Shown piece after piece: positions 19,831 to 61,409 of a stretch of DNA of 64,000 nucleotides. Where the stretch lies: positions 38,013 to 102,012 of the IMG/VR virus record IMGVR_UViG_3300033273_000550; one strand, 5' to 3'. The notes under the pieces were generated by a model. The model was given only the letters and a program-made list of their open reading frames with translations. It was not told the DNA's origin and did no database searches. Each line of letters begins with the position of its first letter. The stretch's first letter is position 1. Source of the stretch: a virus. The position numbers and the translations under genes are program-made.

Positions 19831-20262
19831 ATGAAACTAGATCAACTACGAAAAATAATTCGTGAAGAAGTAAGAGCAGCTGTTAAGGAAGAGTTACAGG
19901 ATATGCTTAACGAAGCAGTTAAACATGCAAGTACACCTGACAAGCAAACCGCAGGCTATAGGGCAGTTAAACAAAAAGATTTAGCTAGAACTTGGTCTAC
20001 CGGAAGAATGAATCCTGGGACTGTACCTTTAGAAGAAATGCTTAACATGACTCAACAGTCTATGACTGGAGAGGATTATAAAAACATTACTAACTCGCAA
20101 GGAGTACATAAGCCTAACTTTGCTTCTAATATCGCTACTGATATGGGATTAACTGAACATGCAGGACCAATGCCCGGTATTGATATTACAAAACTAGACT
20201 TTGTAAAAAATGCAAAAGCAATTTACGATAAATCTTTAGAAAAAGATAGAAATAGACTTTAA
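19831..20262 (+). CDS. Putative internal head protein
   Basis: MKLDQLRKIIREE leader; TATTTAT upstream. Confidence 0.55.
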   Translation: MKLDQLRKIIREEVRAAVKEELQDMLNEAVKHASTPDKQTAGYRAVKQKDLARTWSTGRMNPGTVPLEEMLNMTQQSMTGEDYKNITNSQGVHKPNFASNIATDMGLTEHAGPMPGIDITKLDFVKNAKAIYDKSLEKDRNRL

Positions 20263-20672
20263 TGGCATTAGACGTTAAAAAGATAAACCCTTTAGATTTA
20301 CAGCCTAGAAAAGCTGTAGGTGTCGACTTACCTTTTGGCGGCTCTGCTGTATTTAATTCAACATATCAAACTAAAGATGCGATTAAAGCTAATTTAATAA
20401 ATTACTTTTTAACTAATAAACAAGAAAGATATCTTAACCCCGGCTTTGGAGCTGGACTTAGAGATTTACTATTCGAAAATATAGACCCAGATACTATAGA
20501 AGAGTTGTCTGATAAAATAAAAGTTGACTTAAAAGCATTCTTTCCAAGAGTTATAGTTACGAGCTTAGAGTTAACTCCTGAATATGATCGTAATGCTATT
20601 CTTTTTAGTATGAGATATGCTATTAGAGACACAAACATTCAGGATGAGGTTTCGATAAATTTTGAACAATAA
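20262..20672 (+). CDS. Baseplate wedge gp25-like
   Basis: LT.K.ER..NP.FG.GL..LLFE and FPRV motifs. Confidence 0.88.
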   Translation: MALDVKKINPLDLQPRKAVGVDLPFGGSAVFNSTYQTKDAIKANLINYFLTNKQERYLNPGFGAGLRDLLFENIDPDTIEELSDKIKVDLKAFFPRVIVTSLELTPEYDRNAILFSMRYAIRDTNIQDEVSINFEQ

Positions 20673-22468
20673 TGGCAGAAAAAAGAAACATACAGTACAT
20701 TAATAAGAACTTTGACGATTTTCGTTCAGCGTTAATAGATTATACTAAAAACTATTTTCCTGATACTTATAATGACTTTTCAAACTCATCACCTGGTATG
20801 TTATTTATTGAAATGGCATCCTATGTAGGTGATATATTATCTTTTTATCAAGATACTCAACTACAAGAAACCTTCCTAACTCACGCTAAAGATCCTAAAA
20901 ACTTATTTAATTTAGCTTATATGATGGGATATAAGCCAAAAGTAAGTGTAGTATCAGAAGCAGAAATTACTTTGACACAAACAGTAGATGCTGATGTAAA
21001 CGATCTTCCTGATTGGTCTCAAGCAGCTATTGTAAGAGAAGGATCTACACTTGAGTCTACCGATTCATCTCAAACTAAGTTTCTACTTAAGGAGACAGTA
21101 GACTTTACCGTAAGTAGCTCTTACGATCCTACTAACGTTGTAATTGCAGCATTAGATTCTAGTAATAATCCAACTTCATTTACTTTAACTAAAAAAGCAA
21201 AAGCAGTATCTGCAGAGGTAGCTACAACGACTTTTACTATAGGTCCGGCTGAGAGATTTAAAACTATTACATTAAGTGATGAAAATATAATCGGAATAGA
21301 TTCAATCACAGATAGTGATGGAGTAGAATGGACTGAAGTTCCTTTCTTAGGACAAGATATAGTTTACAATTCTGCCTCTAATGCGGGGTCTGATGCTAAT
21401 GTAGTACCTTATGAATTTACTCTAAAAAAAGTACCTAATAGGTTCGTAACAAGATTTAGAGCTGATGGCTCGTTAACAATACAATTCGGTGCCGGAACAC
21501 TAAACAGTGATGACTCAGAATTCTTACCTGACCCTACTTTAGTTGGTAACGCTACCGATAACGGTGTTTCAAAACTCGACGATGCTTTTGACCCCTCTAA
21601 CTTCTTATATGGTTCATCATACGGTAATGTACCAGCCAACGTAACACTTACAGTAAATTATTTAAAAGGAGGAGGAGTGAGTGCTAATGTACCTGCTAAC
21701 TCTATTACAAAAGCAGGAACGATAGTAGGTACTAATACAACAGGAGTTTCTTATAATAATACTAAACCTGCCTCAGGAGGTAGAGATGGTGATACTGTTG
21801 AAGAATTAAGAGAAAACTCTCTTAGAGCATTTAACGAACAAAATAGAGCTGTAACATTACAAGATTATGCAGTAAGAGCAGCAGCACTACCCGCTAAGTA
21901 CGGTTCAACAGCTAAAGTATTTGCTACACAAGAATCAATTAGCGCAACTAATAAAGACTCGGTTCTTGATAATAACCCGCTAGCGATATCGTTATACGTA
22001 CTAGCATATGATAACGAAGGTAAGTTAACTACTGCTACTTCAACATTAAAAGAGAACCTGAAAAATTATATACATCATTATAAAATACTATCTGATAGCA
22101 TTAAAATTAGAGATGCCTTCATAGTAAATATTGGTGTAAGATACGAAATACTAACTAGACCTGGATACTCTGGTAGAGACGTTCTTTTACAGTGTAATAT
22201 AGCTTTACAAGACTATTTTAAAACTAGTAAGAGAAGTATAAATCAACCTATTAATTTAGCTGAGCTTTATACCCTATTAGATAAAATACCAGGAACGCAA
22301 ACAGTACAGAAAATAGAAATAACTAATAAACAAGGAGGTAATTATTCTCAATATGCTTACGATGTAAAAGGAGCAACAAGAGATGAGATAGTTTATCCAT
22401 CATACGATCCTTGTATATTTGAGGTAAAATATCCTAACACAGATATAGTAGGTAGAGTAATTAAATAA
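20672..22468 (+). CDS. Baseplate wedge gp6/BplJ-like
   Basis: NDF..SSPGM..IE..SYVGD.LSFY.D, FG.G and QNRAVT.QDY motifs. Confidence 0.9.
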   Translation: MAEKRNIQYINKNFDDFRSALIDYTKNYFPDTYNDFSNSSPGMLFIEMASYVGDILSFYQDTQLQETFLTHAKDPKNLFNLAYMMGYKPKVSVVSEAEITLTQTVDADVNDLPDWSQAAIVREGSTLESTDSSQTKFLLKETVDFTVSSSYDPTNVVIAALDSSNNPTSFTLTKKAKAVSAEVATTTFTIGPAERFKTITLSDENIIGIDSITDSDGVEWTEVPFLGQDIVYNSASNAGSDANVVPYEFTLKKVPNRFVTRFRADGSLTIQFGAGTLNSDDSEFLPDPTLVGNATDNGVSKLDDAFDPSNFLYGSSYGNVPANVTLTVNYLKGGGVSANVPANSITKAGTIVGTNTTGVSYNNTKPASGGRDGDTVEELRENSLRAFNEQNRAVTLQDYAVRAAALPAKYGSTAKVFATQESISATNKDSVLDNNPLAISLYVLAYDNEGKLTTATSTLKENLKNYIHHYKILSDSIKIRDAFIVNIGVRYEILTRPGYSGRDVLLQCNIALQDYFKTSKRSINQPINLAELYTLLDKIPGTQTVQKIEITNKQGGNYSQYAYDVKGATRDEIVYPSYDPCIFEVKYPNTDIVGRVIK

Positions 22469-22470
22469 CT

Positions 22471-33688: not shown

Positions 33689-34168
33689 ATGGTAACAGTA
33701 CCCGGATGGACATACAACGGAAAACCAATCACAGAAATATCTGATATGCCTGAAGGAACTTATGGCTTTATTTACGAAGTACATCATATACCTACAGGTT
33801 TAAAGTATATAGGTAAAAAAGTTCTTTACTTTGAACGTAATAAACGCTTAGGAAAACGAGCACTTGAAGCCTTGAGACAAGAAAGAAAAGCAAAAGGTAT
33901 AGGAGGAAGAGTTCCATTAAAGCAGAAAGTAATAACAGAATCAGACTGGAAAGATTATTATGGATCCCATCCTGAAATAAAAAAACTAGTAAAAGAAAGT
34001 TCGCCACTAGATTGGACTAAAAATATTTTACAGTACGTTAGTAATAAAAAGCATTTAACGTATTTTGAATGTAAATACCTATTTATTAAAGAAGCCTTAG
34101 ATACTCGTTCAAATTATATAAACGATAATATACTAGGAAAATTCTATAGGAAAGATTTTTTATTATGA
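33689..34168 (+). CDS. GIY-YIG (Seg-like) endonuclease family protein
   Basis: GFIY...YIGKK, W..YYGS, E and YIN.NI motifs. Confidence 0.8.
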   Translation: MVTVPGWTYNGKPITEISDMPEGTYGFIYEVHHIPTGLKYIGKKVLYFERNKRLGKRALEALRQERKAKGIGGRVPLKQKVITESDWKDYYGSHPEIKKLVKESSPLDWTKNILQYVSNKKHLTYFECKYLFIKEALDTRSNYINDNILGKFYRKDFLL

Positions 34169-34950
34169 TAAAATTACAAGAAATAGTCGGAGTACCTTCA
34201 TTACAGTATCATATTGATAATGGACTAAGCTTACACGATAATGTCTACCGTTATAGTTCTGATGCTTTTATTAATCTATTTAAAGAAGCGAGAGAAGCTC
34301 ATAGAGACGGTAAAATACAGCTTAACGAAGAAGATACGAAGCTAATCGAGACCACTGATATAGGAGAATACGGGGAGTATAATGGAATGAAAGTTCCTTT
34401 AGATTTACCTATGGTTTCTCCAAAGTATAACCCTCTGTTTGAAATCGGCTGTATGATCGACGAAATGATCGAAGATGAAAATACAATCGATGAAGCTTCT
34501 TCGATAGATGAGATGATTGATTATGATTTAATCAAAGAATTGGTAGAATCTATTGGGGGTAACATAAACATGGACAAGTTTAGAAAAGCAGTACAAATTC
34601 AAAATGAATCATTTGATTACAATGGCTTTGAAATGCTTAAAGCGTCTGTTGATTACATACCGGAAGCTGAATACAGAGGCAAAAAGGTTCAGTTAAATAA
34701 ACCCAAGAGAGGTGGTTCAAAAAAGTTTTACGTTTATGTAAAATCAAAAAAAGGAAATGTTAAAAAAGTTTCTTTTGGTGACACAGGTCTTTCAGTAAAG
34801 TTAAAAAAGAGAGGTGCAAGAGCTTCTTTTGCTGCTAGACATAAATGTGCTCAAAAGAAAGATAAAACAAAAGCAGGTTACTGGTCTTGTAATATTGGCC
34901 GTTACTGGAAATCATTAGGCGGTGGATCAAACTTCTCAGGTTACTGGTAG
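34165..34950 (+). CDS. Multidomain putative head protein with basic C-terminal domain
   Basis: MIKLQEI leader; EAEYRG..KKFYVYV..VSFGD..SFAARH.C..AGYWSC. Confidence 0.6.
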   Translation: MIKLQEIVGVPSLQYHIDNGLSLHDNVYRYSSDAFINLFKEAREAHRDGKIQLNEEDTKLIETTDIGEYGEYNGMKVPLDLPMVSPKYNPLFEIGCMIDEMIEDENTIDEASSIDEMIDYDLIKELVESIGGNINMDKFRKAVQIQNESFDYNGFEMLKASVDYIPEAEYRGKKVQLNKPKRGGSKKFYVYVKSKKGNVKKVSFGDTGLSVKLKKRGARASFAARHKCAQKKDKTKAGYWSCNIGRYWKSLGGGSNFSGYW

Positions 34951-35209: not shown

Positions 35210-35339
35210 AGGTATCAATTTAGGTTCGTACAGAGAAAAGGTTAAGAAGAAGCGTCCTGGTATTCATGCTAAGACTAAATCTTCTAAAAGCAAGAACTCT
35301 AAGAACTACCTTAAAGCTTATAGAGGACAAGGCAAATGA
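35202..35339 (+). CDS. 45-aa basic peptide ending YRGQGK, not in the ORF track
   Basis: TTG start; ATGA overlap with the next gene. Confidence 0.6.
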   Translation: MAKGINLGSYREKVKKKRPGIHAKTKSSKSKNSKNYLKAYRGQGK

Positions 35340-35695
35340 AACTATCAGACATTATCTTAGCAGAAAGCACTAAAGTAGTTAGTTTAAAAGATTTAACTTT
35401 TGATCTACTTGTGTCTATATTTAGAGATAAACCATTGTTTGGTTTTAATTTACCAAACCCAGACGACACTAGCAATAGTGTAAATAGTGATACCCAACTA
35501 GGATATTGGAAATCTAAAATAGAAGACAGGTACGGTAATGTTAACATTAAGATAGATACAGAAGCATCTTCTCCTTGGGAGAAAATACAAGTTCTTGATG
35601 ATAAGTTTAGAGCTGATAAAAAAGCATATGTAGACAGTAAAGCTGCTTGGTTAGATAAAGAAAGACAAGCAGGTAGATCATTTGGTTTAGATTAA
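35336..35695 (+). CDS. Putative internal head protein
   Basis: MKLSDIILAE leader. Confidence 0.6.
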   Translation: MKLSDIILAESTKVVSLKDLTFDLLVSIFRDKPLFGFNLPNPDDTSNSVNSDTQLGYWKSKIEDRYGNVNIKIDTEASSPWEKIQVLDDKFRADKKAYVDSKAAWLDKERQAGRSFGLD

Positions 35696-35699
35696 TATT

Positions 35700-35891
35700 A
35701 TGAAGTTATCAAAAGTCATTTTAGAAAATAATAAGATAGTAGAAAAGAAAGAGCTTCATTTAACTGAAGAAGATATTAATACTATTGCATCATTAATTGC
35801 TGAAAAACTAGACGATTATTTAGATGTAGGTAATGATACTATCTTAAAACAAGCAGTATCTGAGGCAATCTCGGAAGTAACTACGAAATAA
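35700..35891 (+). CDS. Putative internal head protein
   Basis: MKLSKVILE leader. Confidence 0.6.
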   Translation: MKLSKVILENNKIVEKKELHLTEEDINTIASLIAEKLDDYLDVGNDTILKQAVSEAISEVTTK

Positions 35892-37643: not shown

Positions 37644-38281
37644 AATATATAAGTATACTTTTACTAGCTTTATTAGCTACCAGTTGTGGTACATATATGA
37701 TTTCTACAAAAAATTCAATAAAGATAGAAAAAGTATTAACTATAACATCAACTGGGGATACTTTAGCAGTACCGTTAAAACAGTTTCAAAAATATAATTA
37801 TAATAATGTTTTTGACAATTATAGATTTAATTCCTTTAACTACGGATTTTATAATTGGTATAGTCCTTATAATTGGAATTTTCTGTATAGCCCGAATAGT
37901 TGGTACTATAGAGATTGGTACTATAAACCACCTATTTATAACAATAACACATCTATCTTAAAGGAAAGAAGGTATTACGTAAATCCTGATCCAGTAAAAG
38001 GTAGAAGAGGAAGTAATAATTTTAGAACTAATAATAATAACGATGATAAGAATATCAGACTTAATCCTAGAAGCATCGAATCGCCCGAAGGCGGTAATAA
38101 TGGCTGGAGGGGCAGGAGCAGGGAAGACTTATTTACTAAACCAGTTGTCCCTGGACTCTCTAACCCAGTTCAACCCGGACAAATACGTCGAGGATCCAGA
38201 CCATCCGTACCACAACAATCTAGGGGCAGCCAGTCGTCAAGTGGACAAGGACGTGGATCAAGCAGCGGACCAAGGAATTAG
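37640..38281 (+). CDS. Lipoprotein with Tyr/Trp/Asn-rich region and disordered RGS tail
   Basis: Signal peptide ending LATSC; tail overlaps the next gene by 239 nt. Confidence 0.65.
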   Translation: MKYISILLLALLATSCGTYMISTKNSIKIEKVLTITSTGDTLAVPLKQFQKYNYNNVFDNYRFNSFNYGFYNWYSPYNWNFLYSPNSWYYRDWYYKPPIYNNNTSILKERRYYVNPDPVKGRRGSNNFRTNNNNDDKNIRLNPRSIESPEGGNNGWRGRSREDLFTKPVVPGLSNPVQPGQIRRGSRPSVPQQSRGSQSSSGQGRGSSSGPRN

Positions 38282-38987: not shown

Positions 38988-39058
38988 AAAAAATAAAAGA
39001 TATATTTTGGGAGTATTGGATTAGACCATGGAGCCCATCAGCACCAAAAACAATATGA
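38984..39058 (+). CDS. 24-aa Trp-rich coupling peptide, not in the ORF track
   Basis: ATGA overlaps at both ends. Confidence 0.45.
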   Translation: MKKIKDIFWEYWIRPWSPSAPKTI

Positions 39059-41934: not shown

Positions 41935-42380
41935 CGAACGAGCAGATACATAAACTTACATTAGAATCACTTCGAGACTGGTTTAAAAAAGAAAAATGGG
42001 TGCGCATTACAACTTCTGGTAATATAGCAGGTGATTGTGGCACCAGTAAAAATAAAAAGAACCCAGACCGCTGTCTACCAAAAGCTAAAGCACAGTCTTT
42101 ATCTAAAGCAGAAAGAGCAGCAACAGCTAGAAAGAAAAAAGCAGCCGGTTCAAAAGGAAAGACTGTCGTGGCAAATACAAAAAAAGCAAAAGTAACTAGA
42201 GAGGATATTAAAAACCTAGTAGTTGGATTAATTCACGAAATGCAAAACGAAAACACTATCATGGAAAAAGATGATAGATGTACTCGAATTGCTAAACAGA
42301 AATACGATACCTGGCCATCAGCTTATGCTTCAGGTGCAGTAGTAAGATGTAGAAGAGGAGAAATCTGGAAAAAGAAATAA
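41931..42380 (+). CDS. Basic two-module putative head protein
   Basis: LRDWFK.EKW..C..RCLP and D.C...AK.KY..WPSAYASG modules separated by x-x-E linkers. Confidence 0.6.
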   Translation: MTNEQIHKLTLESLRDWFKKEKWVRITTSGNIAGDCGTSKNKKNPDRCLPKAKAQSLSKAERAATARKKKAAGSKGKTVVANTKKAKVTREDIKNLVVGLIHEMQNENTIMEKDDRCTRIAKQKYDTWPSAYASGAVVRCRRGEIWKKK

Positions 42381-47089: not shown

Positions 47090-47806
47090 ATGAAAAAAAG
47101 TAAATTCAAAAAGATTATTTTAGAAGCATATGAAGAAACATTATTAGAGTTCTCTTCTAAACTAAATGAATCTTTAGTAGATGAAATAGAAGATACAGAT
47201 AGATATAACGTTAAGGATAACGATTATGAAGTATCTCAAGATGGAATTAGACCTCTAGATATACAGGAAGAAGACGAACCTAAACCGGAAGAACCTGGAG
47301 AAGAAAAAGGAGCTGTACTAGAAGATGCCACAGATAAGATACTATCTAAATTCCCTACTTTAAAAGCTGCTTTAATTAAGCTACAGACAGAAGATTTTAA
47401 ACAATTTGTCGAAAGTATAGATTGGGTTTCTCCTAGACCTACTTCTTTTAGAATTAACCTTAAGAATGGACAAGATTTTATCTTGAAATGGCAAGGAGAA
47501 GGATTTGAAGCTAACATCTTAGGTAAAAGGTACTACCTTAACAAAATTGATGACTACCAACAAGCTTTAGATAAACTAGAAGTACTATACAGAGAAGCAC
47601 CTATGAAGGGAGCAGGAGAAGATGAAGAAGGAGCAGATTTTGATTCCGGTGGATCATCTGGTGGTGGAGGCGGAGATTTTCCTGGAGAAGAAGGCGGTGG
47701 AGACGCCGGAGGTGATAAAGCACCAGAAGCCGGAGGAGAAGAAGGTGGAGCAGATTTATCCGACGAACCAGTAGATTTTGAAGCAGGAGAAGAACCAGAA
47801 GCATAA
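47090..47806 (+). CDS. Putative head protein with acidic Gly-rich tail
   Basis: MKKSKFKKIILE leader. Confidence 0.6.
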   Translation: MKKSKFKKIILEAYEETLLEFSSKLNESLVDEIEDTDRYNVKDNDYEVSQDGIRPLDIQEEDEPKPEEPGEEKGAVLEDATDKILSKFPTLKAALIKLQTEDFKQFVESIDWVSPRPTSFRINLKNGQDFILKWQGEGFEANILGKRYYLNKIDDYQQALDKLEVLYREAPMKGAGEDEEGADFDSGGSSGGGGGDFPGEEGGGDAGGDKAPEAGGEEGGADLSDEPVDFEAGEEPEA

Positions 47807-47807: not shown

Positions 47808-48815
47808 ATGGACTTAATTAATAAATTATATACCGAATGGGCCTGGAGATCTAAATCAGGTGCTCCTAATATTAATAACCCAGAAGATAAGGCTATACTT
47901 AATAGCATTATAAAAGAATTAACAGGTATAGAACAACTAGAAGAAGAATTAGTTGTAGTAGAGGCTGATGGCAGTCAATACGAACAAGTAATAGCGTATG
48001 CACTTTTTAAAGATACTAAAAAAGTAGATGAAATTCCTAACGTAAATAAAAAATATCAATTAGGGAGTAACGATAATGTAGACAGTAAGGATTTAGAAAT
48101 TTGGAAAAAACTTTATCCAGTTAAACCACCAAAAGCTGGTAAAGAAATAGGAACAGCTGGTTCCTTAGGTGCTGGGAATGGTGAAGTTGCACTTTACTGG
48201 TTACTCACCAGATCCGGGTACGATGTTGCTGATGGTAGAGGAGACGAACAACCAGACCTTGTTATAAATAACTCTATAGGACTTGAGGTTAAGGCATACG
48301 GTAAACGTAATATTACCTTAGGTAGATTTGGTAAAGATTATGATACAAGAAAAAAATTAGGATTGGTATTAGGTTTAGATGTACTTATTTCAAATCTTAC
48401 TGGAGAAGATAGAGCTGCATCAATAGATTCTTTTAATAAAGATGAATTGATTAGAGGTTTTGCAACTTTAGCTAAATTTTCTACTAATTCTAATTTAAGA
48501 GGAGCAGCAAATGATTTTGAAGTGATAAATGAAATTTATAAAAGAGTAGACGGTTTAACCGCAGATCTAGGATTAGACCAATCTTTTAAACCTAAAGAAG
48601 GAGCAGCTGCTATTTTAAGACAGTTATTAGAAACCAAAGCTTCTAAGAAACCAGGATACGGAGGATATATGGTTGATGTATCTGAGGATGGGAAACTACA
48701 ATATATTCAAGTTACAGAGGAAAAAATTAACGCATTAGATGCTGATACAATTCTAAAATACGTTAGTGCTAACGGATCAGCATTAAAAATATACCCAGAA
48801 GAGTTATTCGGGTAA
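47808..48815 (+). CDS. Putative PD-(D/E)XK nuclease-fold protein
   Basis: G.GE.AL...PDL...LEVK. Confidence 0.55.
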   Translation: MDLINKLYTEWAWRSKSGAPNINNPEDKAILNSIIKELTGIEQLEEELVVVEADGSQYEQVIAYALFKDTKKVDEIPNVNKKYQLGSNDNVDSKDLEIWKKLYPVKPPKAGKEIGTAGSLGAGNGEVALYWLLTRSGYDVADGRGDEQPDLVINNSIGLEVKAYGKRNITLGRFGKDYDTRKKLGLVLGLDVLISNLTGEDRAASIDSFNKDELIRGFATLAKFSTNSNLRGAANDFEVINEIYKRVDGLTADLGLDQSFKPKEGAAAILRQLLETKASKKPGYGGYMVDVSEDGKLQYIQVTEEKINALDADTILKYVSANGSALKIYPEELFG

Positions 48816-52348: not shown

Positions 52349-53203
52349 ATGAAAATAAAACATTCAAAATATCGTAACACAGGATTAATATTCGAATTGC
52401 TAGTAAAGCAAATAGCAGTCGATACCCTGAATAACGAAGACTCAAAAGCAGTACAGATACTTAAGAAGTATTTTACTGGTAAGTCTGTATTAGGAAAAGA
52501 ATATAAATTATACGAATTTATTTCGAAAAATAATAAACTCAATCAAACAAAAGCAGAAGCAGTTTTATCTACAATTACTGAAGTATCGAGAAAGTTATCT
52601 CAAGATGCTTTAAAAACTCAAAAATATAATCTCATCTCTGATATTAAGGAGAGCTATAATATTGAAGAGTTTTTTGGTATGGAAGTAGCTAACTATAAAT
52701 CTCTTGCTGCATTATATTGTTTGTTAGAAGCTCAAAATAGTAACTCATTAGTTGATCCTCAATTTTTAGTTAACAATAAAGTAACTATATTAGAACATTT
52801 AACTTCTAATCCTCAAACTAAAGAAGACGTAAAAGATAGTCTTATTGAAGATTATAGTAAGTACGATAAGGATTTAAAAATGCTTACGTTTAAAATTCTA
52901 TTAGAAAAGTTTAACGATAAGTATAAAGATTTACTACCAGAGCAAAAAAATATACTAAAAGAATTTATAACCTCAGTTAATTCTAATAAGAAGCTACATA
53001 CATTAGTTAATACAGAATTAGAAAAAATTAAGAGTATAGTAGAGGAATTAAGTAATAACATTACCGATGATGTTACAAAAATTAAGTTGACTGAGATTTG
53101 TAAAGGTATTAAGTTAGTATCTAAAACTCAAAAGATTAATGATACTCATTTAGTTAACCTTATGCAATATTATGATCTAGTAAACGAGTTAAAAAACTTA
53201 TGA
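52349..53203 (+). CDS. Conserved head-module protein
   Basis: KHSK.RNTGL.FELL start; lies between portal and protease. Confidence 0.65.
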   Translation: MKIKHSKYRNTGLIFELLVKQIAVDTLNNEDSKAVQILKKYFTGKSVLGKEYKLYEFISKNNKLNQTKAEAVLSTITEVSRKLSQDALKTQKYNLISDIKESYNIEEFFGMEVANYKSLAALYCLLEAQNSNSLVDPQFLVNNKVTILEHLTSNPQTKEDVKDSLIEDYSKYDKDLKMLTFKILLEKFNDKYKDLLPEQKNILKEFITSVNSNKKLHTLVNTELEKIKSIVEELSNNITDDVTKIKLTEICKGIKLVSKTQKINDTHLVNLMQYYDLVNELKNL

Positions 53204-53433
53204 CAAGATCTCAACTAATTCAATTAGTAAAAGAAGTAATGCAGGAATTACATGAAGTAAACACTACCAGCTCAGGTGGCGCTTCATTTACACCAGGAGA
53301 CGGAGCACAATATGCTACTCCTGCTGCGTTTGGAAAAGCAACTAGAGCTAAAAAGACTTTAACAAAGTTAGGTTTTAAACAGGTAAGCCGACCTAAGAGG
53401 CCATCACATACTAAAGGATTTGACTATTTATAA
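53200..53433 (+). CDS. Putative internal head protein
   Basis: LVKEVMQELHE leader followed by a basic tail. Confidence 0.55.
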   Translation: MTRSQLIQLVKEVMQELHEVNTTSSGGASFTPGDGAQYATPAAFGKATRAKKTLTKLGFKQVSRPKRPSHTKGFDYL

Positions 53434-53435: not shown

Positions 53436-54932
53436 ATGAGACAAAAAACAGTAACTGAAAGATATAAAGCTGTCTGCGAAGGAAAGATGGCTGAAAGGGA
53501 ATTCGTTCGTCAAATGAGACAGGAATACCCAATGCATATTACTCAATTTAACGGATTTAAGGATTCAGTTCAGATACTTAAGAATAGAGGTTTACTTTTT
53601 GAAGAAAAGAAAATTTCTGTTAACCCTAAGTACGATGAAAGACCTAAAAGAGATTATCCATTAGATGCTCTTGAAAGAGGTATTAGATATGAACTAGAAG
53701 CATCCGGTGTTGACTCGGTAGATAAATTTAATATTACTGCAGATCAGTTTACTAAAGCTGAACAAAAAGCTAAGAAAAATTTAGAAAAAGATCCTTTACA
53801 TTATATAAATCTTATTTCTGGTGAATCATCTAAAGTTGATAAACACGACAAAGAAGTAGAAATAAAAAGAGGTGAAGGTAAGGTAGACGTATTTAACGGG
53901 CTTAAAAAAGCTAATCTTAGAGAAGGAGTAGAAGAAGCTGAAAAGAAAGAACTCCCTAAATCTATTGCAGATAAAGAAAGAGACCAGATTGAAAAAGATG
54001 CTAAGAAAGCTAAAGGAATGATAAAAGAAGATCCTAAAGAAAATATTATAGCTGTAGCGAAAGCGATTAGAGAAAAGTACGGCATGATACCTGGGTTTAA
54101 CATCTTATTAAAAGACTTCTTATTTACACATCAGCATGAAATTAAAGCTGGTGAAGTAACAGATCCGATTGGTGAGTTCGATAATTTTGTTGATGCAAAC
54201 TACGATAGATTAGATGAGAAAGAAGATGTAGTTAATGAAAGAGTAGGTGCATTACAAGAATTTATCTCTCTAATTCAAGATAGAGCAGCAGAATCAGGAT
54301 TTAGTGAAGCTGAAGAAGCTGCTGAAGTAATCGAAGCTTTACAAGATCATTATAACCTAAGCGAAAAGAAAGGAACAGATCACGACAAAGATGGAGATAT
54401 AGACTCAGACGACTACATGGCTGCTAAAGATAAAGCTATCAAAAAAGCTATGGGTAAAGATGAGCAGTTAAAAGAAGTAGTAAAGAACATAATTAGAAAA
54501 AGTTTAGAAGAAGGAGTACTTAACGAGGCAGCTACTAATCAACTAGCAGACATTGCTGATCAGTATGAAGGCTTTGAAGGAATGAAACAGACTATATTAG
54601 CTCTTCAAAACATAGTTACTGAGATTGAATTATTTTATGATAAGACTAGAGGTAAAGTCCAAAAGATTTATGATTCTATTGGAGAAGTTAGAAATGAAGA
54701 AGGACTTAAAGTAGGACCGTATCTAGCTCCTGCTATTGAAGCTGCTTTTAGAAAAGACCTTAATCCGGTAACAAAAGCTGGATTTACAAAAGGTTTAGAA
54801 GTACCTAAAGTAAGAGTAATTTCTCAAAAAGATATTGACGCACATAATTCCGGAGAAGCACCGCTAGGTGAATCAGAACCTAAACAAACAATATTTTCTC
54901 CTGTGAACGAAAAAAGAAATAACAATGAATAA
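53436..54932 (+). CDS. Multi-module putative prohead core protein
   Basis: Repeated [LIV]-x-E; DHDKDGDIDSDD EF-hand-like loop. Confidence 0.6.
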   Translation: MRQKTVTERYKAVCEGKMAEREFVRQMRQEYPMHITQFNGFKDSVQILKNRGLLFEEKKISVNPKYDERPKRDYPLDALERGIRYELEASGVDSVDKFNITADQFTKAEQKAKKNLEKDPLHYINLISGESSKVDKHDKEVEIKRGEGKVDVFNGLKKANLREGVEEAEKKELPKSIADKERDQIEKDAKKAKGMIKEDPKENIIAVAKAIREKYGMIPGFNILLKDFLFTHQHEIKAGEVTDPIGEFDNFVDANYDRLDEKEDVVNERVGALQEFISLIQDRAAESGFSEAEEAAEVIEALQDHYNLSEKKGTDHDKDGDIDSDDYMAAKDKAIKKAMGKDEQLKEVVKNIIRKSLEEGVLNEAATNQLADIADQYEGFEGMKQTILALQNIVTEIELFYDKTRGKVQKIYDSIGEVRNEEGLKVGPYLAPAIEAAFRKDLNPVTKAGFTKGLEVPKVRVISQKDIDAHNSGEAPLGESEPKQTIFSPVNEKRNNNE

Positions 54933-55170
54933 TTTTGATCTAAAAAAATTCTTAACGGAAAATAAATTAAAAAAAGCAGGGTATACTAGTATGCCTGGTA
55001 GACTAGCTATTCAAGGCTCAAAAGAGTTTGAATCAGCACACCATAACGGAGAGATTACTCCTGCTGAATATATGAAAGATGTTCTTAGTGGAATGAAAGA
55101 GTTAGACCATTTAGATCAAGAATCTGTTATTATTCTAAAAGCAATTGGTAGACAAGATTTAATCGGATAA
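54925..55170 (+). CDS. Putative internal head protein
   Basis: MNNFDLKKFLTE leader. Confidence 0.55.
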   Translation: MNNFDLKKFLTENKLKKAGYTSMPGRLAIQGSKEFESAHHNGEITPAEYMKDVLSGMKELDHLDQESVIILKAIGRQDLIG

Positions 55171-55174: not shown

Positions 55175-55753
55175 ATGGCACAACTATTAGTAGACGTTAC
55201 ACCATTTAAACCTACACTCAGAGAGTCTAAATCTAGACCAGGAGTATTCGAGGTAGAAGGTGTTATGCAAAGAGCTAAAGCTCAAAATCAAAACGGTCGT
55301 GTTTATAAAAAAGAAATTTTAGAGAGAGAAGCTAAGAAGTATATGGAGGAGTTCGTAAAGAACGGTAATGCATTCGGAGAATTAGATCATCCTGAAACTC
55401 CTGTAGTTTCTCTAAAAAATGCTTCTCACGTAGTGAAAGACCTTTGGTGGAAGGGTGATGACCTAATGGGTAGAGTAGAACTACTAAACACCCCTGCAGG
55501 TAATATAGTAAAAGAAATTATTAAAGCAGGACATACTATAGGTATAAGCTCTAGAGGAACAGGCTCAGTACATCAGACTAATGAAGGAACCTTAGAAGTA
55601 CAACCAGATTTTGATTTAGTATGTTGGGATTTTGTATCTAATCCTTCTACTCATGGTGCTTTTATGAACCCTGTATCTCTACAGGAGAGTAAAGTTAAAT
55701 TACCAAAATACCACAACTTAAACAGTATTATTAACGATATTTTAAGAGCTTAA
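55175..55753 (+). CDS. Prohead protease (T4 gp21-like)
   Basis: NQNGRVY, GELDHP, GISSRG.GS and DFV..PST motifs. Confidence 0.95.
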   Translation: MAQLLVDVTPFKPTLRESKSRPGVFEVEGVMQRAKAQNQNGRVYKKEILEREAKKYMEEFVKNGNAFGELDHPETPVVSLKNASHVVKDLWWKGDDLMGRVELLNTPAGNIVKEIIKAGHTIGISSRGTGSVHQTNEGTLEVQPDFDLVCWDFVSNPSTHGAFMNPVSLQESKVKLPKYHNLNSIINDILRA

Positions 55754-55878: not shown

Positions 55879-57033
55879 ATGGCGAATAAGGATTTATTCA
55901 AGCAAGCGATTGCTGAAGCTAAATCGGTTAGAGAAGCTGCTATTGCCAATGCTAAAGAGGCTTTAGAAGAATCATTAACTCCGCATCTTAAAGATATGTT
56001 GGCTGCTAAACTTCAAGAAATGGAAGATAAATCTGTTGAAGAAGAAGTAGTAAACGAAATCGAAGAAGAGCTTGAAGAAGCTAATCACGATAAGAAAGAT
56101 GATGAGAAGATGGAGGAAGCTAAAGATGACAAAAAAGACGAAGCAATAGAAGAAGACTTAACTGAAGTACCAGCAGTTGCTGAAGAAGACGAAGCAGAGG
56201 ATGACTCAGACGAATCTGAGGACGATGCTGAGGTTGAAGAACCAGAGCATGACCACGACGAGGTTGACGGTGATGAAGATTTATCTAAACTATCTGTAGA
56301 TCAGTTTAAAGATTTAATCAGAGACATCATTAATCAAGAAATGGGTGCTGACGCAGCTCCTGATATGGACGGCGGTGATATCGAAGGTATGGGCGATGAG
56401 CCTGCTATCGAAGAACCAGCTGGAGATGATCTAGGAGGCGATGATGAAGAAGAAATCAATTTAGATGAACTTCTTCAAGAACTTGAAGCTATTTCTGAAC
56501 AAGAAGTAGAAGAAGGTAAAAAAGAAGACAAAATGGAAGAAGGCAACAAAGATAAAGTTGACGAAGCAGAAGAGTTAGAAGAAGACACTAACAATCAAAT
56601 GGAAGCTGAATCTGATACTAAAGATCACAACGTTAATAACGTACAATCAGGTGCTCTTAAAGAAGAATTAGATCAGGCTCTAGAAACGATTGAAACTCTT
56701 AAATCAGAGTTAAATGAAGTGAATATCTTAAACTCTAAATTACTTTACGTAAACAAGATCTTTAAAGCTAATTCTCTTTCAGAAAGTCAAAAAGTAAACA
56801 TTATTGCTGCTTTCGATAAAGCTGAAACAGTGAAAGAAGTAAAATTAGTTTACGAAACAGTTTCTGATAACTTCTCAAGTAAAAAAGAAGTTAAAAACGA
56901 AACAATCAAAGAAGCTAAAAATTTAAGCATGGCATCTAAAGCAGGCGGAACATCAGCTGCGAAACCAGAAGTTATCGCAGAGGTATCTGATACTGTGAGA
57001 AGAATGCAAAAATTAGCTGGAATCATTAAATAA
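55879..57033 (+). CDS. Prohead scaffolding protein (gp22-like)
   Basis: Acidic coiled coil between protease and MCP; C-terminal RMQKLAGI. Confidence 0.8.
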   Translation: MANKDLFKQAIAEAKSVREAAIANAKEALEESLTPHLKDMLAAKLQEMEDKSVEEEVVNEIEEELEEANHDKKDDEKMEEAKDDKKDEAIEEDLTEVPAVAEEDEAEDDSDESEDDAEVEEPEHDHDEVDGDEDLSKLSVDQFKDLIRDIINQEMGADAAPDMDGGDIEGMGDEPAIEEPAGDDLGGDDEEEINLDELLQELEAISEQEVEEGKKEDKMEEGNKDKVDEAEELEEDTNNQMEAESDTKDHNVNNVQSGALKEELDQALETIETLKSELNEVNILNSKLLYVNKIFKANSLSESQKVNIIAAFDKAETVKEVKLVYETVSDNFSSKKEVKNETIKEAKNLSMASKAGGTSAAKPEVIAEVSDTVRRMQKLAGIIK

Positions 57034-57059: not shown

Positions 57060-58655
57060 ATGGAAATTAACAACCTTTTAGAGAGCTCGAATACTTACAA
57101 AAGTATGTTAGCTGACTCTGTAAAGCTTGCTGAGAAGTGGAATGCATCTGGATTGTTAGAAGGTATCGGAGATGAGAGAGTCAAAAATAACATGGCTGTC
57201 ATCTTAGAAAACCAAGCTAAACAAGTAGTTGCTGAAGCAAATACTACTAACGTTGGTGGAGGATCTTTCTCTGCTGGTGCTGGTGAGCAGTGGGCTGGAG
57301 TAGTTCTACCATTAGTAAGAAAAGTATTCGCTCAAATCGTTGCTCAAGATTTCGTTTCTGTACAGCCAATGAACCTACCATCTGGTCTTGTATTCTATCT
57401 AGACTTCAAATACGGAGATACTAGAAATGGAAGATCATCAGGAGACAACTTGTACGGTAATGTATCTTCTGCATCTGCAAAAATGTCTGTAGACGAAGAA
57501 GTAAGCGGCGGTCTTTACGGTGCTGGACAGTTTGGTTATTCAATCAACTCTGCATCTAAAGCATTCAACAGTACAGCAACTGGATCTGCTACATCTGCAT
57601 CTATCGCTTATGACGATGATAAAGTAGTAGGAGACTTCAAAACATTAGCAGTAACTTTTGCTAATAGTGATAACGCTGACCTTAAAGGAGTAAGAGCATT
57701 TAGAATTTTATCTGCTTCTACTGACATTACATCACACCCAGAATTAACTACTGTATCTGGTAACACAGTAACTTTCGTAGTAACAGGATCTAACGTAACT
57801 GCTGCATCTGTAAACGCTACTGTAATATACCACAAACAGCCAGTTGATAATGACAGAGGTGATTTCGAAGCTGATGGAGGAGACGGAAACAACGTACAGC
57901 CTTCTATCGCTATCCCATCTATTGACGTCAAATTAGCTAGTGAAGCGATTGTTGCTAAGACTAGAAAATTAAAGGCTCAATGGACACCAGAATTCGCTCA
58001 AGATCTTAACGCTTACCACAGCATCGACGCTGAGGCTGAGTTAACATCTTTATTGAGTGAATATATCTCAATGGAGATTGATCTTGAGATTTTAGATATG
58101 TTAATCCAAGACGCTGTTACAACTGAAAGATGGTCTGTTAAATCAAACAGAGTATGGAATGGAACAGCTTGGGCTAACTTAAACCCAATTTATTACAATA
58201 CTCAAGGACAGTGGTTCCAAACTTTAGGAACTAAAATCCAAAAAGTATCTAATAAAATCCACCAAAAAACTTTAAGAGGTGGAGCTAACTTCATCGTATG
58301 TTCTCCAAACGTTGCAACTATCCTAGAATCTATTCCTGGATATGCTGCTAACACTGACGGAGATCAAATGGAGTTCAACATGGGAGTACAAAGAGTTGGT
58401 AGCTTAGCTAACAGATTCAAAGTATACAAGAACCCTTATATGACTGAGAACATCATGTTGTTAGGATATAGAGGATCTCAATTCTTAGAAACTGGAGCGG
58501 TATATGCACCATATGTACCATTAATGATGACTCCTCTAGTGTACGATCCAGACACTTTCACACCAAGAAAAGGTCTGATGACTAGATACGCTAAGAAGAT
58601 GATTAGACCAGAATTCTATGGTAAGATCTTTATCTCTGATCTAAACGATCTATAA
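57060..58655 (+). CDS. Major capsid protein (T4 gp23-like)
   Basis: SVQPM..PSGL.F, AKTRKLKA.W..E.AQDL.A.H.IDAE.EL, YAPY.PL and TRYA motifs. Confidence 0.96.
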   Translation: MEINNLLESSNTYKSMLADSVKLAEKWNASGLLEGIGDERVKNNMAVILENQAKQVVAEANTTNVGGGSFSAGAGEQWAGVVLPLVRKVFAQIVAQDFVSVQPMNLPSGLVFYLDFKYGDTRNGRSSGDNLYGNVSSASAKMSVDEEVSGGLYGAGQFGYSINSASKAFNSTATGSATSASIAYDDDKVVGDFKTLAVTFANSDNADLKGVRAFRILSASTDITSHPELTTVSGNTVTFVVTGSNVTAASVNATVIYHKQPVDNDRGDFEADGGDGNNVQPSIAIPSIDVKLASEAIVAKTRKLKAQWTPEFAQDLNAYHSIDAEAELTSLLSEYISMEIDLEILDMLIQDAVTTERWSVKSNRVWNGTAWANLNPIYYNTQGQWFQTLGTKIQKVSNKIHQKTLRGGANFIVCSPNVATILESIPGYAANTDGDQMEFNMGVQRVGSLANRFKVYKNPYMTENIMLLGYRGSQFLETGAVYAPYVPLMMTPLVYDPDTFTPRKGLMTRYAKKMIRPEFYGKIFISDLNDL

Positions 58656-58733: not shown

Positions 58734-59171
58734 ATGGCAAACTTAACTGTAAGAATATTCGAAAAACTTACACTCGACGATAACGTTCACGATAATGTAT
58801 ACGAAAAGACCTTCAGCGGTGTAAACTATATAGACCATAGGAGATTAAATGCTTCTAGTGGTTCCAATACCTCTATATTCAAAATTAATAATAATGTAGC
58901 AGCAGGTACCTTTGTTACTTCCTCTATAGTATACGGTAGAGTATCTAACTTAAGTACTGAGTATGACGTGAGTTTACAGGTTTCTAGCTCTACTGAAAGT
59001 TTTTATCAAAGGATATCCCCAGGAGGAACTTATGTTTTAAGTTCAACAGAGTTTACTGGAAGTGCTTATGCTGATTCTTCTGTAGCTTTATCTTTTGATC
59101 AAATAGAAGAATTAAAAGTAGAACCTATTTCTGGCTCAGCTAAGATAGAATACTACATAACAACTAGTTAA
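58734..59171 (+). CDS. Hypothetical virion protein
   Basis: Beta-rich ORF after MCP; TATTTAT upstream. Confidence 0.6.
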   Translation: MANLTVRIFEKLTLDDNVHDNVYEKTFSGVNYIDHRRLNASSGSNTSIFKINNNVAAGTFVTSSIVYGRVSNLSTEYDVSLQVSSSTESFYQRISPGGTYVLSSTEFTGSAYADSSVALSFDQIEELKVEPISGSAKIEYYITTS

Positions 59172-59173: not shown

Positions 59174-60316
59174 ATGGCTAATATACAGATTTGGGATGGG
59201 TCCGCTACCTTTAGTCCAGGTATGACACCATTTGGATTTTACGATAATGACACTGATTTCCAAACAGAAGCAGTTAAAGTAGCTAAATTTTGTGCTACTA
59301 GATTAGGATATCCTCTGATGGATGTGGAATTACAATCCGGATCTTTCTTTGCTTGCTTTGAAGAAGCAGTAACTACCTACGGTAATATAGTATTTCAGTA
59401 TAAAATTAGAGAGAACTACTTAACTATGGAGGGAGCTTCAAGTGAAACCTCTATTAATGATAAGTTAATTAATGCTTCTCTAGCTAGAATGATAGAAATC
59501 AGTCAAGAGTACGGTACTGAAGCAGAAGTAGGAGGAAAGGTAACATTACACACAGGTTCCCTTAGTTTATCGGTAAATAAACAGAAGTATGACTTAGATC
59601 AATGGGCTGTTGATAATAATATAGAAGGAGGAATAGAAGTTAGACGTATATTTTATGAAGCTCCTCCTGCTATCTTAAGATATTTTGATCCTTATGCTGG
59701 TACTGGAACAGGAATACAGTCGCTAATGGATGCTTTTGACTTTGGATCTTATTCTCCTGGTATAAACTTTCTATTAATGCCTGCATCTTATGATATGCTT
59801 AAGGTTCAAGCTATAGAATTTAATGATCAAGTAAGAAGATCATCATATTCCTTTGAAATAACTAATAATCAGTTAACTATCTTTCCTATACCTAAGACAG
59901 CTGCTAATTTAAGGTTTGAATACTATACTTTAGATGAAAAACAACAAGCTGTATTTCAAGACGGAAGAAATAAAATAAATAACGTATCAGAAGTACCATA
60001 TGATAACCCAGAATTTATCAAAATTAATACTCCTGGTAGGGATTGGATATATAGATATACTTTAGCATTAGCTAAAGAGCTTTTAGCATACGTAAGAGGT
60101 AAATATACAGTAGTACCTGTACCAGGTTCAGAAACTACCTTGAATCAAGCAGATTTATTAACTGATGCTAGAGCAGAAAAAGCAAAACTACTTGATGAAT
60201 TAGCTGAACTGTTAGCTATTGCTTCTAGAAAGAGTCAATTAGAGCAACAAGCTGCGGAAACTAACGCTTTACAGCAAACATTAGGTGGAGTACCAATGAA
60301 AATATATGTAGGATAG
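59174..60316 (+). CDS. Neck/head-tail adaptor (gp13-like)
   Basis: RLGYP..DVEL; WI..Y.LA.AKE.L...RGKY..VP.PG...LN. Confidence 0.82.
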   Translation: MANIQIWDGSATFSPGMTPFGFYDNDTDFQTEAVKVAKFCATRLGYPLMDVELQSGSFFACFEEAVTTYGNIVFQYKIRENYLTMEGASSETSINDKLINASLARMIEISQEYGTEAEVGGKVTLHTGSLSLSVNKQKYDLDQWAVDNNIEGGIEVRRIFYEAPPAILRYFDPYAGTGTGIQSLMDAFDFGSYSPGINFLLMPASYDMLKVQAIEFNDQVRRSSYSFEITNNQLTIFPIPKTAANLRFEYYTLDEKQQAVFQDGRNKINNVSEVPYDNPEFIKINTPGRDWIYRYTLALAKELLAYVRGKYTVVPVPGSETTLNQADLLTDARAEKAKLLDELAELLAIASRKSQLEQQAAETNALQQTLGGVPMKIYVG

Positions 60317-60618
60317 TGAAACTACTAGATATTATAAAGGAAATAATTAACTTTAATACATACGAAGGTATGGTACAAGTTATTTATGATGAAAGTGAAG
60401 GAAGTACTAAGGTAGCCGAATTAATAAGAGCGTTACCTGGAGTTACTACTGTAACTTTAGCTTCTGACGAAGGAAGAGGTAGAGAAACTTTAAAAGTAAA
60501 ACTAATATCTCAGAAATCCCCTAAAGAAGCCTTTGATAGTATGAAGAAAAATGCTATATCTAAATATACTCCTATAAGAGTAGTAAATATAGCGTATAAA
60601 ACTATAACTAAGAAGTAA
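60316..60618 (+). CDS. Putative internal head protein
   Basis: GTG start; MKLLDIIKE leader; IRALPGVT.V. Confidence 0.55.
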   Translation: MKLLDIIKEIINFNTYEGMVQVIYDESEGSTKVAELIRALPGVTTVTLASDEGRGRETLKVKLISQKSPKEAFDSMKKNAISKYTPIRVVNIAYKTITKK

Positions 60619-61118
60619 TGCTGTTTGGAAGTAATAGAGATTTCGACTTATTAGTCAATATCAACAGAGAACTGTTAAAAGACGTAATAGAACAAGAGAT
60701 TCTATACTATAAATTTAGTTTAGAAGATACTGATGTTAATATTTACGGTGAAGCTATGTCGAAAAACTACTGGACTCCTATTAAAATGAACTGTTTAGTA
60801 ACTAGAGGTGATCAAGTAGTAACAGCAGACCAATTAGAACTACCGGATCTTACAAGAGAAGCTTCTTTTGCTATGATTAGACAAGATTTAGAAGATTTAT
60901 CTTTAGTTCCTGAAGTAGGAGACATAATAAATTGGCAAGAAGACTACTATGAAGTAGATACAGTAAGGGAAAATGAACTATTTGTAGGTAAAGATAAGAG
61001 TTATAACTTAACTAACTACGGATCACGCTTTGGATCTTCACTTTCTATTATAGTAGACTGTCATCAGACAAGAAGAGAAAAAACTGGTATACAATTTGAA
61101 GGTACCACTTATTTATAA
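60618..61118 (+). CDS. Neck/head-closure protein (gp14-like)
   Basis: IYGEA; P.VGDII.W...YYEV. Confidence 0.72.
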   Translation: MLFGSNRDFDLLVNINRELLKDVIEQEILYYKFSLEDTDVNIYGEAMSKNYWTPIKMNCLVTRGDQVVTADQLELPDLTREASFAMIRQDLEDLSLVPEVGDIINWQEDYYEVDTVRENELFVGKDKSYNLTNYGSRFGSSLSIIVDCHQTRREKTGIQFEGTTYL

Positions 61119-61121
61119 TAT

Positions 61122-61409
61122 ATGAAACTAATTGATATCTTAAGGGAAGAAGAAGAATGGAGACAAGATACTCCAAGCTTTAAAACTAAACGCACTGGAC
61201 AAGATCCTGAAACAGGTACTATATCCTGGGATATTGAATATACCCCGCTAAAAGGCGTAGATAATGCTATAGATAAAGCTTATGAAGAGTATAAAGAAGT
61301 TTTGAGAAAGTATCCTGACGATCAAAAGTTAGATAAGTTATTTGACGTGTTTGCTTCCTTTAAAAAAGCATTTAGAACTCATGTAAGTAGAAAATATGGC
61401 AGACAGTAA
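61122..61409 (+). CDS. Putative internal head protein
   Basis: MKLIDILRE leader; TATTTAT upstream. Confidence 0.55.
   Translation: MKLIDILREEEEWRQDTPSFKTKRTGQDPETGTISWDIEYTPLKGVDNAIDKAYEEYKEVLRKYPDDQKLDKLFDVFASFKKAFRTHVSRKYGRQ

Follow-up and report, generated by a model that had tools for sequence, protein, structure and literature searches.

In bacteriophage T4, the internal proteins IPI, IPII and IPIII and the protein Alt carry a capsid-targeting sequence (CTS) at the N-terminus, which is removed by the protease gp21. The targeting tag consists of 10 residues, and it is the only part shared by the very diverse proteins of the T4 internal-protein genes (PMC3012670). The review by Kuhn and Thomas (PMC9026906) states that packaging of IPIII needs no more than its first 10 residues, that residues 4 and 7 serve targeting and residues 8 and 10 serve processing, and that Asp at position 10 blocks processing. 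It also states that gp21 cleaves after Glu in L/I-x-E. Here we describe a family of N-terminal leaders in a 64,000-nucleotide stretch of viral DNA (hereafter, the window), which spans bases 38,013-102,012 of the IMG/VR record IMGVR_UViG_3300033273_000550. That record is one contig of 191,416 bp; its G+C content is 33 %, and almost all of its genes are encoded on the same strand. The leaders were located at the extreme N-terminus and were 8-14 residues long. We suggest, with a probability of roughly 60 %, that they are T4-type N-terminal capsid-targeting propeptides removed by the head protease, and that their carriers are packed into the head. The leaders probably mark substrates of the prohead protease, and on balance they would serve as a head-loading tag for most carriers.

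In the proposed mechanism, the leader, a short and mostly amphipathic segment with a hydrophobic-x-Glu end, would recruit the protein to the scaffold core while the prohead assembles. The peptidase S77 prohead protease would then cut the leader off after Glu. The trimmed proteins would stay in the head with the DNA and would enter the host at infection. Hydrophobic-x-Glu also marks the scaffold, the N-terminal part that the capsid protein loses, and the module joints of a 417-aa GNAT-nucleotidyltransferase protein. Core binding, cutting, head retention and injection are steps that we only infer. A preliminary description of this DNA had listed 14 such N-termini and had read them by analogy with T4. 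That analogy was partly supported, since the S77 protease, the length and ending of the leaders and the variable cargo agreed with it, whereas two of the 14 N-termini were weak and the site on the capsid protein was not an address tag. All 14 proved to be real starts of open reading frames (ORFs) with correct coordinates. About seven carriers had been overlooked, including the scaffold, the protease and the protein at 47808, and the total was about 15-20. Proteins are named below by the window position of their first base, and all the carriers, like the protease, scaffold and capsid genes, are on the + strand.

The N-termini of T4 were fetched for comparison. IpII and ipIII begin with MKTYQEFIAE, gp24 with MAKINELLRE and gp22 with MLKEQLIAE, and sites are present at residue 9 of gp21 (LLIE) and of inh (YIAE). 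The propeptide lengths are 10 residues for ipII/ipIII, 19 for ipI and 10 for gp24. The leaders in the window were similar to the T4 CTS in that a tag of about 10 residues at the N-terminus ended in L/I-x-Glu and was accompanied by a gp21-type S77 protease. FIAE at residue 10 in T4 corresponded to ILAE at residue 10 in the protein at 35336. In both systems, one tag was found on unrelated, fast-changing proteins, which in T4 include the enzyme Alt. The leader and the T4 IPIII tag shared only the M-K start and the hydrophobic-hydrophobic-x-E end, and a stretch of ten residues is too short to judge homology. The L/I-x-Glu ending was present in 12 of the 14 N-termini listed before, while P3 was Val in 53200 and Thr in 41931.

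There were also differences from T4. Two leader types were found here instead of one. Type 1 was M-K-L-S-x-I-I-L-E, with a longer form M-K-K-S-x-L-x-x-I-I-x-E, and type 2 was M-x-N-F-D-L-K-K-F-L-x-E followed by N/G-K. About 15-20 carriers were counted per genome, compared with a handful in T4, and P3 could also be Val, Phe or Tyr. The cargo, which is known here from sequence alone, had no detectable sequence homology to that of T4, and it included a P-loop kinase, a nucleotidase, a GNAT-nucleotidyltransferase chain and a nuclease-like protein. In giant phages, a gp21-related protease cleaves many different head proteins after Glu, 19 of them in 201phi2-1, and some of these proteins are ejected into the host (PMC9026906). 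However, the motif of phiKZ, 201phi2-1 and SPN3US is S/A-x-Glu, and their propeptides are long and varied with no single shared short leader. In the literature searched, no description of such leaders was found for Flavobacterium-type or 'Far-T4' phages, and the precedents came from T4 and giant phages only.

Comparison across related sequences provided the decisive support for the leader family, and it was stronger than the signal within a single genome. Counts were made over distinct ortholog N-termini, and hydrophobic-x-Glu was sought within residues 6-17. Protein families retained the motif in nearly every member or in almost none. The motif was kept in 35336 (12/12), 35700 (31/31), the kinase at 38043 (47/47), the nucleotidase at 40262 (38/40), 41575 (34/34), 53200 (44/44, Val allowed) and 60316 (25-26/26). 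By contrast, it was not found when sought in the primase (0/26), 40970 (0/35), the NMNAT-like protein at 39028 (0/20), the large terminase (0/19), the portal (0/33), 59174 (0/27) or 60618 (0/16), and 61396 gave 1/18. Two families, 34165 (18/34) and the exonuclease (25/32), were in between and resembled an unconstrained chance match. The ortholog sets were not near-identical copies, with identities of 43-90 %. Eleven of the 14 leaders proposed before were solid, as their hydrophobic-x-Glu ending was retained across hundreds of related contigs.

The Glu moved together with the length of the leader. The kinase family showed LILE, IILAE and LLE, and the nucleotidase family showed LLE as well as LLGE and LLKE. 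In the case of 60316, the variants were IIE, IILE, IILSE and ILRE, and [LI]xE was present in all 30 aligned rows. The leader codons varied synonymously under fixed residues (Leu as TTA, CTT, CTA or CTC; Glu as GAA or GAG; Lys as AAA or AAG). This meant that selection acted on the peptide and not on an RNA or DNA signal, and a translation-start signal at the nucleotide level was rejected for the same reason. We regard the leader family as almost certainly real. It is selected at the peptide level and is confined to certain protein families.

The phage itself was placed by its nearest cultured relatives, four records of Flavobacterium phage vB_FspM_immuto (hereafter, immuto). Immuto and the window were about 71 % identical in DNA over the head genes, and their proteases were 77 % identical. 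The next nearest prohead proteases belonged to cyanophages, with about 40 % identity. The source phage is a marine Flavobacterium-type relative of immuto with a T4-like head. The lineage is abundant in marine metagenomes, and a viral contig collection contained 309 stretches related to the protease, 115 to the kinase and 340 to 19831, and the nucleotidase had 1,678 related clusters. The head module was of the T4 type, with a portal (PF07230, E 4.8e-73), an S77 prohead protease, an acidic scaffold-like protein and a gp23-type major capsid protein. The gene order of portal, small core proteins, protease, scaffold and capsid was the same as that of the T4 head proteins with propeptides (gp24, gp22, gp67, gp68 and gp21). 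The small core proteins had no homology to gp67 or gp68 in the profile searches run, which is a difference from T4, and the window yielded no gp24-type vertex paralogue.

The prohead protease (55175..55753; peptidase S77, T4 gp21 type; PF03420, E 1.8e-35; phrog_207) is presumed to be the enzyme that removes the leaders. It aligned with the solved T4 gp21 structure 5jbl (E 1.3e-24), and its GELDHP and GISSRG aligned with GELNHP and GVSSRG of T4. In its catalytic residues, the His of GELDHP and the Ser of GISSRG, it agreed with native T4 gp21, whereas the chain crystallised in 5jbl has Ala in both places. The gene for the protease is intact. It carried its own sites, TLRE17 and LQE171, and [LI]xE near residue 17 was present in 37/37 ortholog N-termini. 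A site near its own N-terminus is also found in gp21 (LIE9).

The acidic scaffold-like protein in the gp22 position (55879..57033), which was absent from the preliminary list, had the leader MANKDLFKQAIAE13, and its QAIAE13 mirrored QLIAE9 of gp22. It contained 26 [LIV]xE sites, and the first-site motif was present in 5/5 ortholog N-termini. Its C-terminus read RRMQKLAGIIK, with VIAE368 before it (window 56986-57033). Across related loci, this peptide was C-terminal in 66 of 66 occurrences of the motif. In immuto, the scaffold-tail peptide was also N-terminal on two other proteins (MKKQILSEQF-R/K-RMQ-K/F-LAGII..., record positions 111675 and 25061). Possibly, RRMQKLAGIIK has been copied from the scaffold tail and serves as a head-binding tag of a third type. 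Short peptides bring cargo into an HK97-fold shell in the case of encapsulin cargo-loading peptides and the coat-binding C-terminal helix of the P22 scaffold, and these are C-terminal and not removed. They are functional analogues of the leaders, and the recurrence of the scaffold tail at the N-terminus of the two immuto proteins can be compared with them.

The major capsid protein (57060..58655; gp23 type; PF07068, E 8.8e-83) had [LIV]xE sites at residues 8, 25, 34, 50 and 59, all in the N-terminal part. The T4 maturation cut mapped to about residues 50-59, based on alignment to T4 gp23 and to mature gp23 chains. MEINNLLE8, which had been counted among the leaders, was a real site and was kept in 27/27 ortholog N-termini. 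However, it was the first of several sites in the removed N-terminal segment, and thus it was not an address tag.

Further evidence came from the slot between the protease and scaffold genes. Among 64 related loci with both genes, the slot was empty in 20. The other loci contained 57 ORFs of at least 60 aa, which fell into seven unrelated clusters by the mature part. A strict leader was found in 50 of these ORFs and [LI]xE in 51. Among the six slot ORFs that did not have [LI]xE, one read MKLSELFLE and one resembled a truncated ORF call. The leader is therefore located on unrelated, interchangeable proteins. The diversity of the slot with a shared leader gave the same picture as that described for the T4 internal-protein genes (PMC3012670). 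The mature parts of 20 leader-bearing proteins were also unrelated to each other (BLASTP, E <= 0.1) except for one match of 25 residues, in agreement with the claim that the leaders sit on unrelated proteins. In the window, the slot was empty, and an 81-aa protein (54925..55170) with a type 2 leader (MNNFDLKKFLTE12, then NKL) was directly upstream of the protease. Leaders of this type headed many unrelated proteins in relatives and in immuto. Candidate tagged proteins of immuto had the N-termini MKKSELVKLIKE, MENTFDLKKFLVE and MKKSQLRQIIKE, and its nucleotidase was also a candidate. In the head module of cyanophage P-SSM7, one small gene was present between portal and protease, and the variable slot was not seen.

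The signal was also examined within genomes, using the strict pattern [LIVFM][LIV]xE with Glu at residues 6-13. It was found in 10 of 46 + strand proteins between window positions 19831 and 61122 and in 7 of 199 elsewhere (Fisher p = 1.5e-4), although this p value flatters the case because the bounds of the region were taken from the preliminary hits themselves. The interior rate of the pattern predicted 3.4 % per protein. When the 8-residue window was slid to offsets of 10-80 in the same 46 proteins, it gave 1-3 hits. In immuto, 21 of 220 proteins had the strict pattern, against 8.0 expected. The homologous 100-134 kb stretch contained 12 carriers among 36 proteins, compared with 9 of 184 elsewhere (p = 6.6e-6), and this repeat was independent of the earlier choice of region. 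In a motif-free test, which compared residues 2-14 among all 245 proteins, 28 pairs reached an ungapped 8-mer BLOSUM score of at least 25, against 7-13 pairs for two interior segments and 10-14 for three shuffles. The largest linked group consisted of eight claimed proteins and the scaffold, with some noise. These results indicated that the single-genome signal was real but moderate.

The genome is AT-rich and encodes much Lys, Leu, Ile and Glu, so amphipathic N-terminal helices ending in hydrophobic-x-Glu might arise from composition. Bare [LIV]xE occupied 1.7 % of interior positions and was present at residues 6-13 in 41 proteins, against 31.9 expected, and the exonuclease and two early proteins matched by chance. 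However, the regional enrichment in two genomes, the all-or-none conservation of families, the synonymous variation under fixed residues and the leaders of the slot ORFs were all contrary to a chance origin, which we regard as very improbable.

Several carriers were enzymes. The 314-aa protein at 38043 (38043..38987) was a P-loop kinase of the zeta-toxin family (PF06414, 50.1 bits against a cutoff of 22.3, residues 11-154). Its leader MIRISDLILE10 was followed by a short variable linker and then by the first strand and the P-loop. Such an N-terminus was present on all 75 homologs, and the length of the leader varied by 1-2 residues. The 181-aa protein at 40262 (40262..40807) was an HAD nucleotidase of the NT5C type (phrog_2643, E 1.4e-22). 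It had the leader MNKSLVDLLE10 and a 12-residue linker before the DMDG motif, with LLE or LLxE in relatives. Its start had been placed at an internal ATG of an ORF beginning with TTG, and 58 of 61 homologous ORFs aligned from that ATG. Both leaders were outside the enzyme profiles, as the kinase profile matched from residue 11 onwards and the nucleotidase profile only after about 20 residues. Sequence searches of the PDB with the nucleotidase and the kinase gave no match at E <= 0.01, so the reading of the leader as an add-on comes from Pfam and PHROG profile coordinates alone. The homolog search with the nucleotidase returned close relatives only (77-100 % identity), a set that cannot reveal distant homologs lacking a leader. 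The enzyme labels given in the preliminary description held at the family level for the Zeta_toxin-type P-loop kinase, the NT5C/HAD nucleotidase, the GNAT domain and the Pol-beta-type nucleotidyltransferase. In window 38043-40807, three adjacent genes encoded the kinase, a nucleotidyltransferase whose start is of the (H/T)xGH type, and the nucleotidase. Of these, only the nucleotidyltransferase lacked a leader. In immuto, the middle part of this trio was a 907-aa multi-domain protein annotated as NadR.

A further candidate enzyme was the 335-aa protein just upstream of the large terminase (47808..48815), which was not in the preliminary list. It began with MDLINKLYTE10 followed by W11, and E10 and W11 were invariant in 27 sequences. 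The AF2 model (pLDDT 88) contained a helical N-terminal module of 40 residues, a floppy linker and a domain resembling restriction endonucleases. The best VIA fold matches were all weak, with Z scores of 5.4 for HinP1I, 5.0 for HhaI and 4.9 for MspI, below the caution line of the tool at 8. The atlas lead was R.HinP1I (0.84), and Foldseek against the PDB gave no match at E <= 0.001. The consensus kept E...DL...EVK, which fits the restriction-endonuclease-like reading. From the model, we tentatively consider 47808 to be restriction-endonuclease-like.

The following observations weighed against the packaging of these proteins. Several carriers were located next to replication genes (primase, exonuclease) and not next to head genes. 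The kinase and the nucleotidase flank the leader-less NMNAT-like gene (0/20), so a cytoplasmic pathway is a fair alternative for them. In 47808, the leader Glu was within a confidently predicted helix that spanned the proposed cut. In 19831, the entire 28-residue N-terminus was kept in 79/79 orthologs, well past the Glu. P3 was Val, Thr, Tyr or Phe in some families, beyond the strict L/I of T4. Across the whole 191-kb genome, the strict pattern was carried by 17 proteins, only about twice the 8.4 predicted by the interior rate. The exonuclease had NILE in 25/32 relatives, alternating with NILK, and thus showed the bare motif by chance. Finally, a literature search found no proteomic, N-terminal sequencing or packaging data for immuto or its phage group.

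Some of these observations would be expected if the true substrates were only the proteins of the head module, namely the scaffold, the capsid protein, gp67/68-like proteins and the slot genes. The enzymes at 34-48 kb would then bear a look-alike helix for oligomerisation or partner docking and would act in the cytoplasm. Their proximity to the primase, exonuclease and leader-less NMNAT-like genes is in line with this, as are the folded 40-residue N-terminal module of 47808 and the conservation of 28 residues in 19831. However, the leaders of the kinase and the nucleotidase followed the same rule as the head module, since the Glu was kept through length shifts (47/47 and 38/40), and they were outside the enzyme profiles. 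The GNAT-nucleotidyltransferase protein also had hydrophobic-x-Glu joints. We consider the restriction to the head module unlikely.

This modular protein of 417 aa (42381..43634) consisted of the leader MKLTQLILE9, a domain of no known family, a GNAT domain, a Pol-beta-type nucleotidyltransferase and a basic C-terminal module of 57 aa. Both the GNAT and the nucleotidyltransferase domains were just above the Pfam cutoffs. The joints LQE129, ISE235 and FKE360 were each located at a domain boundary and were each followed by Asn-Tyr (NY). The protein held 3 of the 8 [LIVF]xENY in the genome, compared with 3.4 expected genome-wide. Relatives matched it piecewise, with breaks near 233, 348 and 360, as expected of protease-jointed cargo whose modules recombine at such joints. 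The 57-aa module (window 43461-43634) was found in no fewer than 596 viral contig stretches. Of the 69 different sequence contexts upstream of it, 68 had Glu at P1 and 55 had a hydrophobic residue at P3, compared with 7-22 of 69 at P2 and P4-P6. In the shortest forms, the leader was fused straight onto the module. As a separate line of evidence, this pattern indicates that hydrophobic-x-Glu functions as a junction signal in these phages. The module contained Cys and was highly conserved (...GKSRPGRVK..GASC.GSV..LR.KA.K..GE...MYHWCANMK.GK), and it was C-terminal on dozens of unrelated proteins. It may bind DNA or the interior of the head. A very basic 45-aa protein (window 35202-35339; ...KKKRPGIHAK...YRGQGK) was conserved in 46 related loci and in immuto, and it had the RPG motif in common with the C-terminal module of 42381.

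The conserved feature of leaders and joints is the cutting motif itself, and the module joints need cutting and not packaging. The leader might thus be a handle for a protease only, with late trimming by the prohead protease or another Glu-specific protease for activity switching or decay timing. The T4 prohead protease is not known to be active outside the prohead. The review ties the cleavages to prohead maturation and assigns targeting to the N-terminal part of the T4 tag (PMC9026906). Moreover, Lys2, Leu3 and Ser4 were conserved upstream of the motif, suggesting a second function beyond the P3-P1 cut site. A handle that has no role in packaging therefore seems improbable to us, and we prefer T4-type targeting propeptides.

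The remaining carriers were small basic or very acidic proteins with no family match, and the NCBIfam search gave no carrier names above cutoff. The 119-aa protein at 35336 (35336..35695) had the leader MKLSDIILAE10. The 63-aa protein at 35700 (35700..35891) had MKLSKVILE9, and this leader was its best-conserved part, with 8 of the first 9 columns invariant against a mean column identity of 66 %. Its leader showed synonymous codon variety. Complex prediction of the protease with 35700 gave a score of 0.00 against a mark of 0.32, which was neither for nor against binding. The 238-aa protein at 47090 (47090..47806) was very acidic and Gly-rich, with the leader MKKSKFKKIILE12. Its homologs were 205-517 aa long, and 22 of 30 had the leader by the strict pattern.

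The 77-aa basic protein at 53200 (53200..53433) was encoded between the portal and protease genes, where T4 has gp67/gp68. It began with MTRSQLIQLVKE12, had a second site LHE19 and showed synonymous codon variety in the leader. After the leader, it resembled the mature N-terminal arm of the capsid protein, with 52 % identity over 25 aa. The shared stretch (53236-53320 and 57222-57296) was at the likely maturation site and consisted of Glu, Ala/Val, N-T-T and a Gly-rich run. This copying of the capsid maturation site and arm would be consistent with a core protein of the gp67 kind that imitates the capsid subunit. The 100-aa protein at 60316 (60316..60618) had MKLLDIIKE9 followed by a small ferredoxin-like domain. 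Its proposed start was a GTG here, and the ATG of relatives confirmed it. The model gave a pLDDT of 59 for the leader and 80-88 for the domain, and the fold search gave generic ferredoxin-like matches only (ribosomal protein S6, EF-1 beta, ACT), with no lead on function. The 95-aa protein at 61122 (61122..61409) had MKLIDILRE9, whose end ILRE resembled LLRE of gp24, and a CTATTTAT-like motif 5 nt upstream. Just three homologs were seen, all with DILE.

Some members were less certain. The 143-aa protein at 19831 (19831..20262), upstream of a gp25-like baseplate gene, began with MKLDQLRKIIRE12 and had more sites at VKE20 and LNE28. Because its N-terminus was conserved past the Glu and its neighbours were baseplate genes, it may do something else. 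The claim that the leaders are not seen on early or baseplate proteins was broadly correct, as the early proteins 1986 and 6131 matched the bare pattern at about the chance level, but 19831 lies within the baseplate cluster. Two other listed N-termini had real starts but were weak as members. In the 149-aa basic protein at 41931 (41931..42380; MTNEQIHKLTLE12), P3 was Thr or Val in relatives, and [LIV]xE was present in 3/15 N-termini. The Glu and a following SLRDWFKK were kept in most relatives, and the phrog_23735 profile began at residue 13. In the 261-aa protein at 34165 (34165..34950; MIKLQE6), a doubtful member, Glu6 alternated with Asp in relatives.

Two of the carriers not listed before were a 119-aa protein (41575..41934; MATQKEVLESLLSE14), with [LV]LxE in orthologs, and a 145-aa protein after the capsid gene (58734..59171; MANLTVRIFE10). 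The latter had [LI]xE in 5/5 N-termini, and its immuto ortholog starts with MAKFTYFIRE. Two proteins were possible members. A helical protein of 284 aa after the portal gene (52349..53203) had LIFE16, which was kept in 12/13 N-termini. A charged protein of 498 aa between portal and protease (53436..54932) had AVCE15 of the V-x-E type, with V-x-E in 19/19 and [LI]xE in 0/19.

Many leader genes had been said to follow TATTTAT. This was directly the case only for 19831 (4 nt) and 61122 (5 nt). In the genome, CTATTTAT occurred 29 times on the + strand and once on the - strand, and 15 copies were within 40 nt upstream of a start. The genes 41931, 42381, 47090, 53200, 54925, 57060 and 60316 belonged to a co-directional run whose motif was placed directly before a gene further upstream. 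The nearest CTATTTAT was 78 nt upstream of 34165, about 200 nt upstream of 35336 and 103 nt upstream of 38043, and none was found just upstream of 35700 or 40262. Portal, sheath-like, tube-like and further structural genes also had CTATTTAT(A) 4-30 nt before their start (e.g. 19820, 50399, 53425, 58712, 61110). It is a likely late promoter, different from TATAAATA of T4. In window 7822-12520, early-looking genes had a repeated TATATTAAGGTAT...AAATAAAGGTT block directly before ATG. TATATTAAGGTAT had four copies, each on the + strand and no more than 40 nt from a start. A phage-encoded homolog of ribosomal protein S21 was located at window 7238-7435 (phrog_21469, E 1.5e-13).

The principle of the T4 tag is known, and what is notable here is the number and the enzymatic nature of the carriers. 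It is conceivable, though we hold it only tentatively, that this marine lineage loads an enzyme kit into the head and injects it with the DNA. The kit would comprise a kinase, a nucleotidase, a protease-cut GNAT-nucleotidyltransferase chain, a nuclease-like protein and small basic proteins. Since immuto is cultured, with Flavobacterium sp. LMO8 as its host, the head-loading idea is open to direct test. Proteins injected with the DNA are known for very few phages, and they come into play in the very first seconds of infection, the stage at which host defences determine the result. If the idea is true, the leader would be a computable label, and sequence alone would be enough to list which proteins thousands of uncultured phages inject. 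It would also mean that the T4 tagging system is old and widespread, and able to carry whole enzymes as well as cut-apart enzyme chains.

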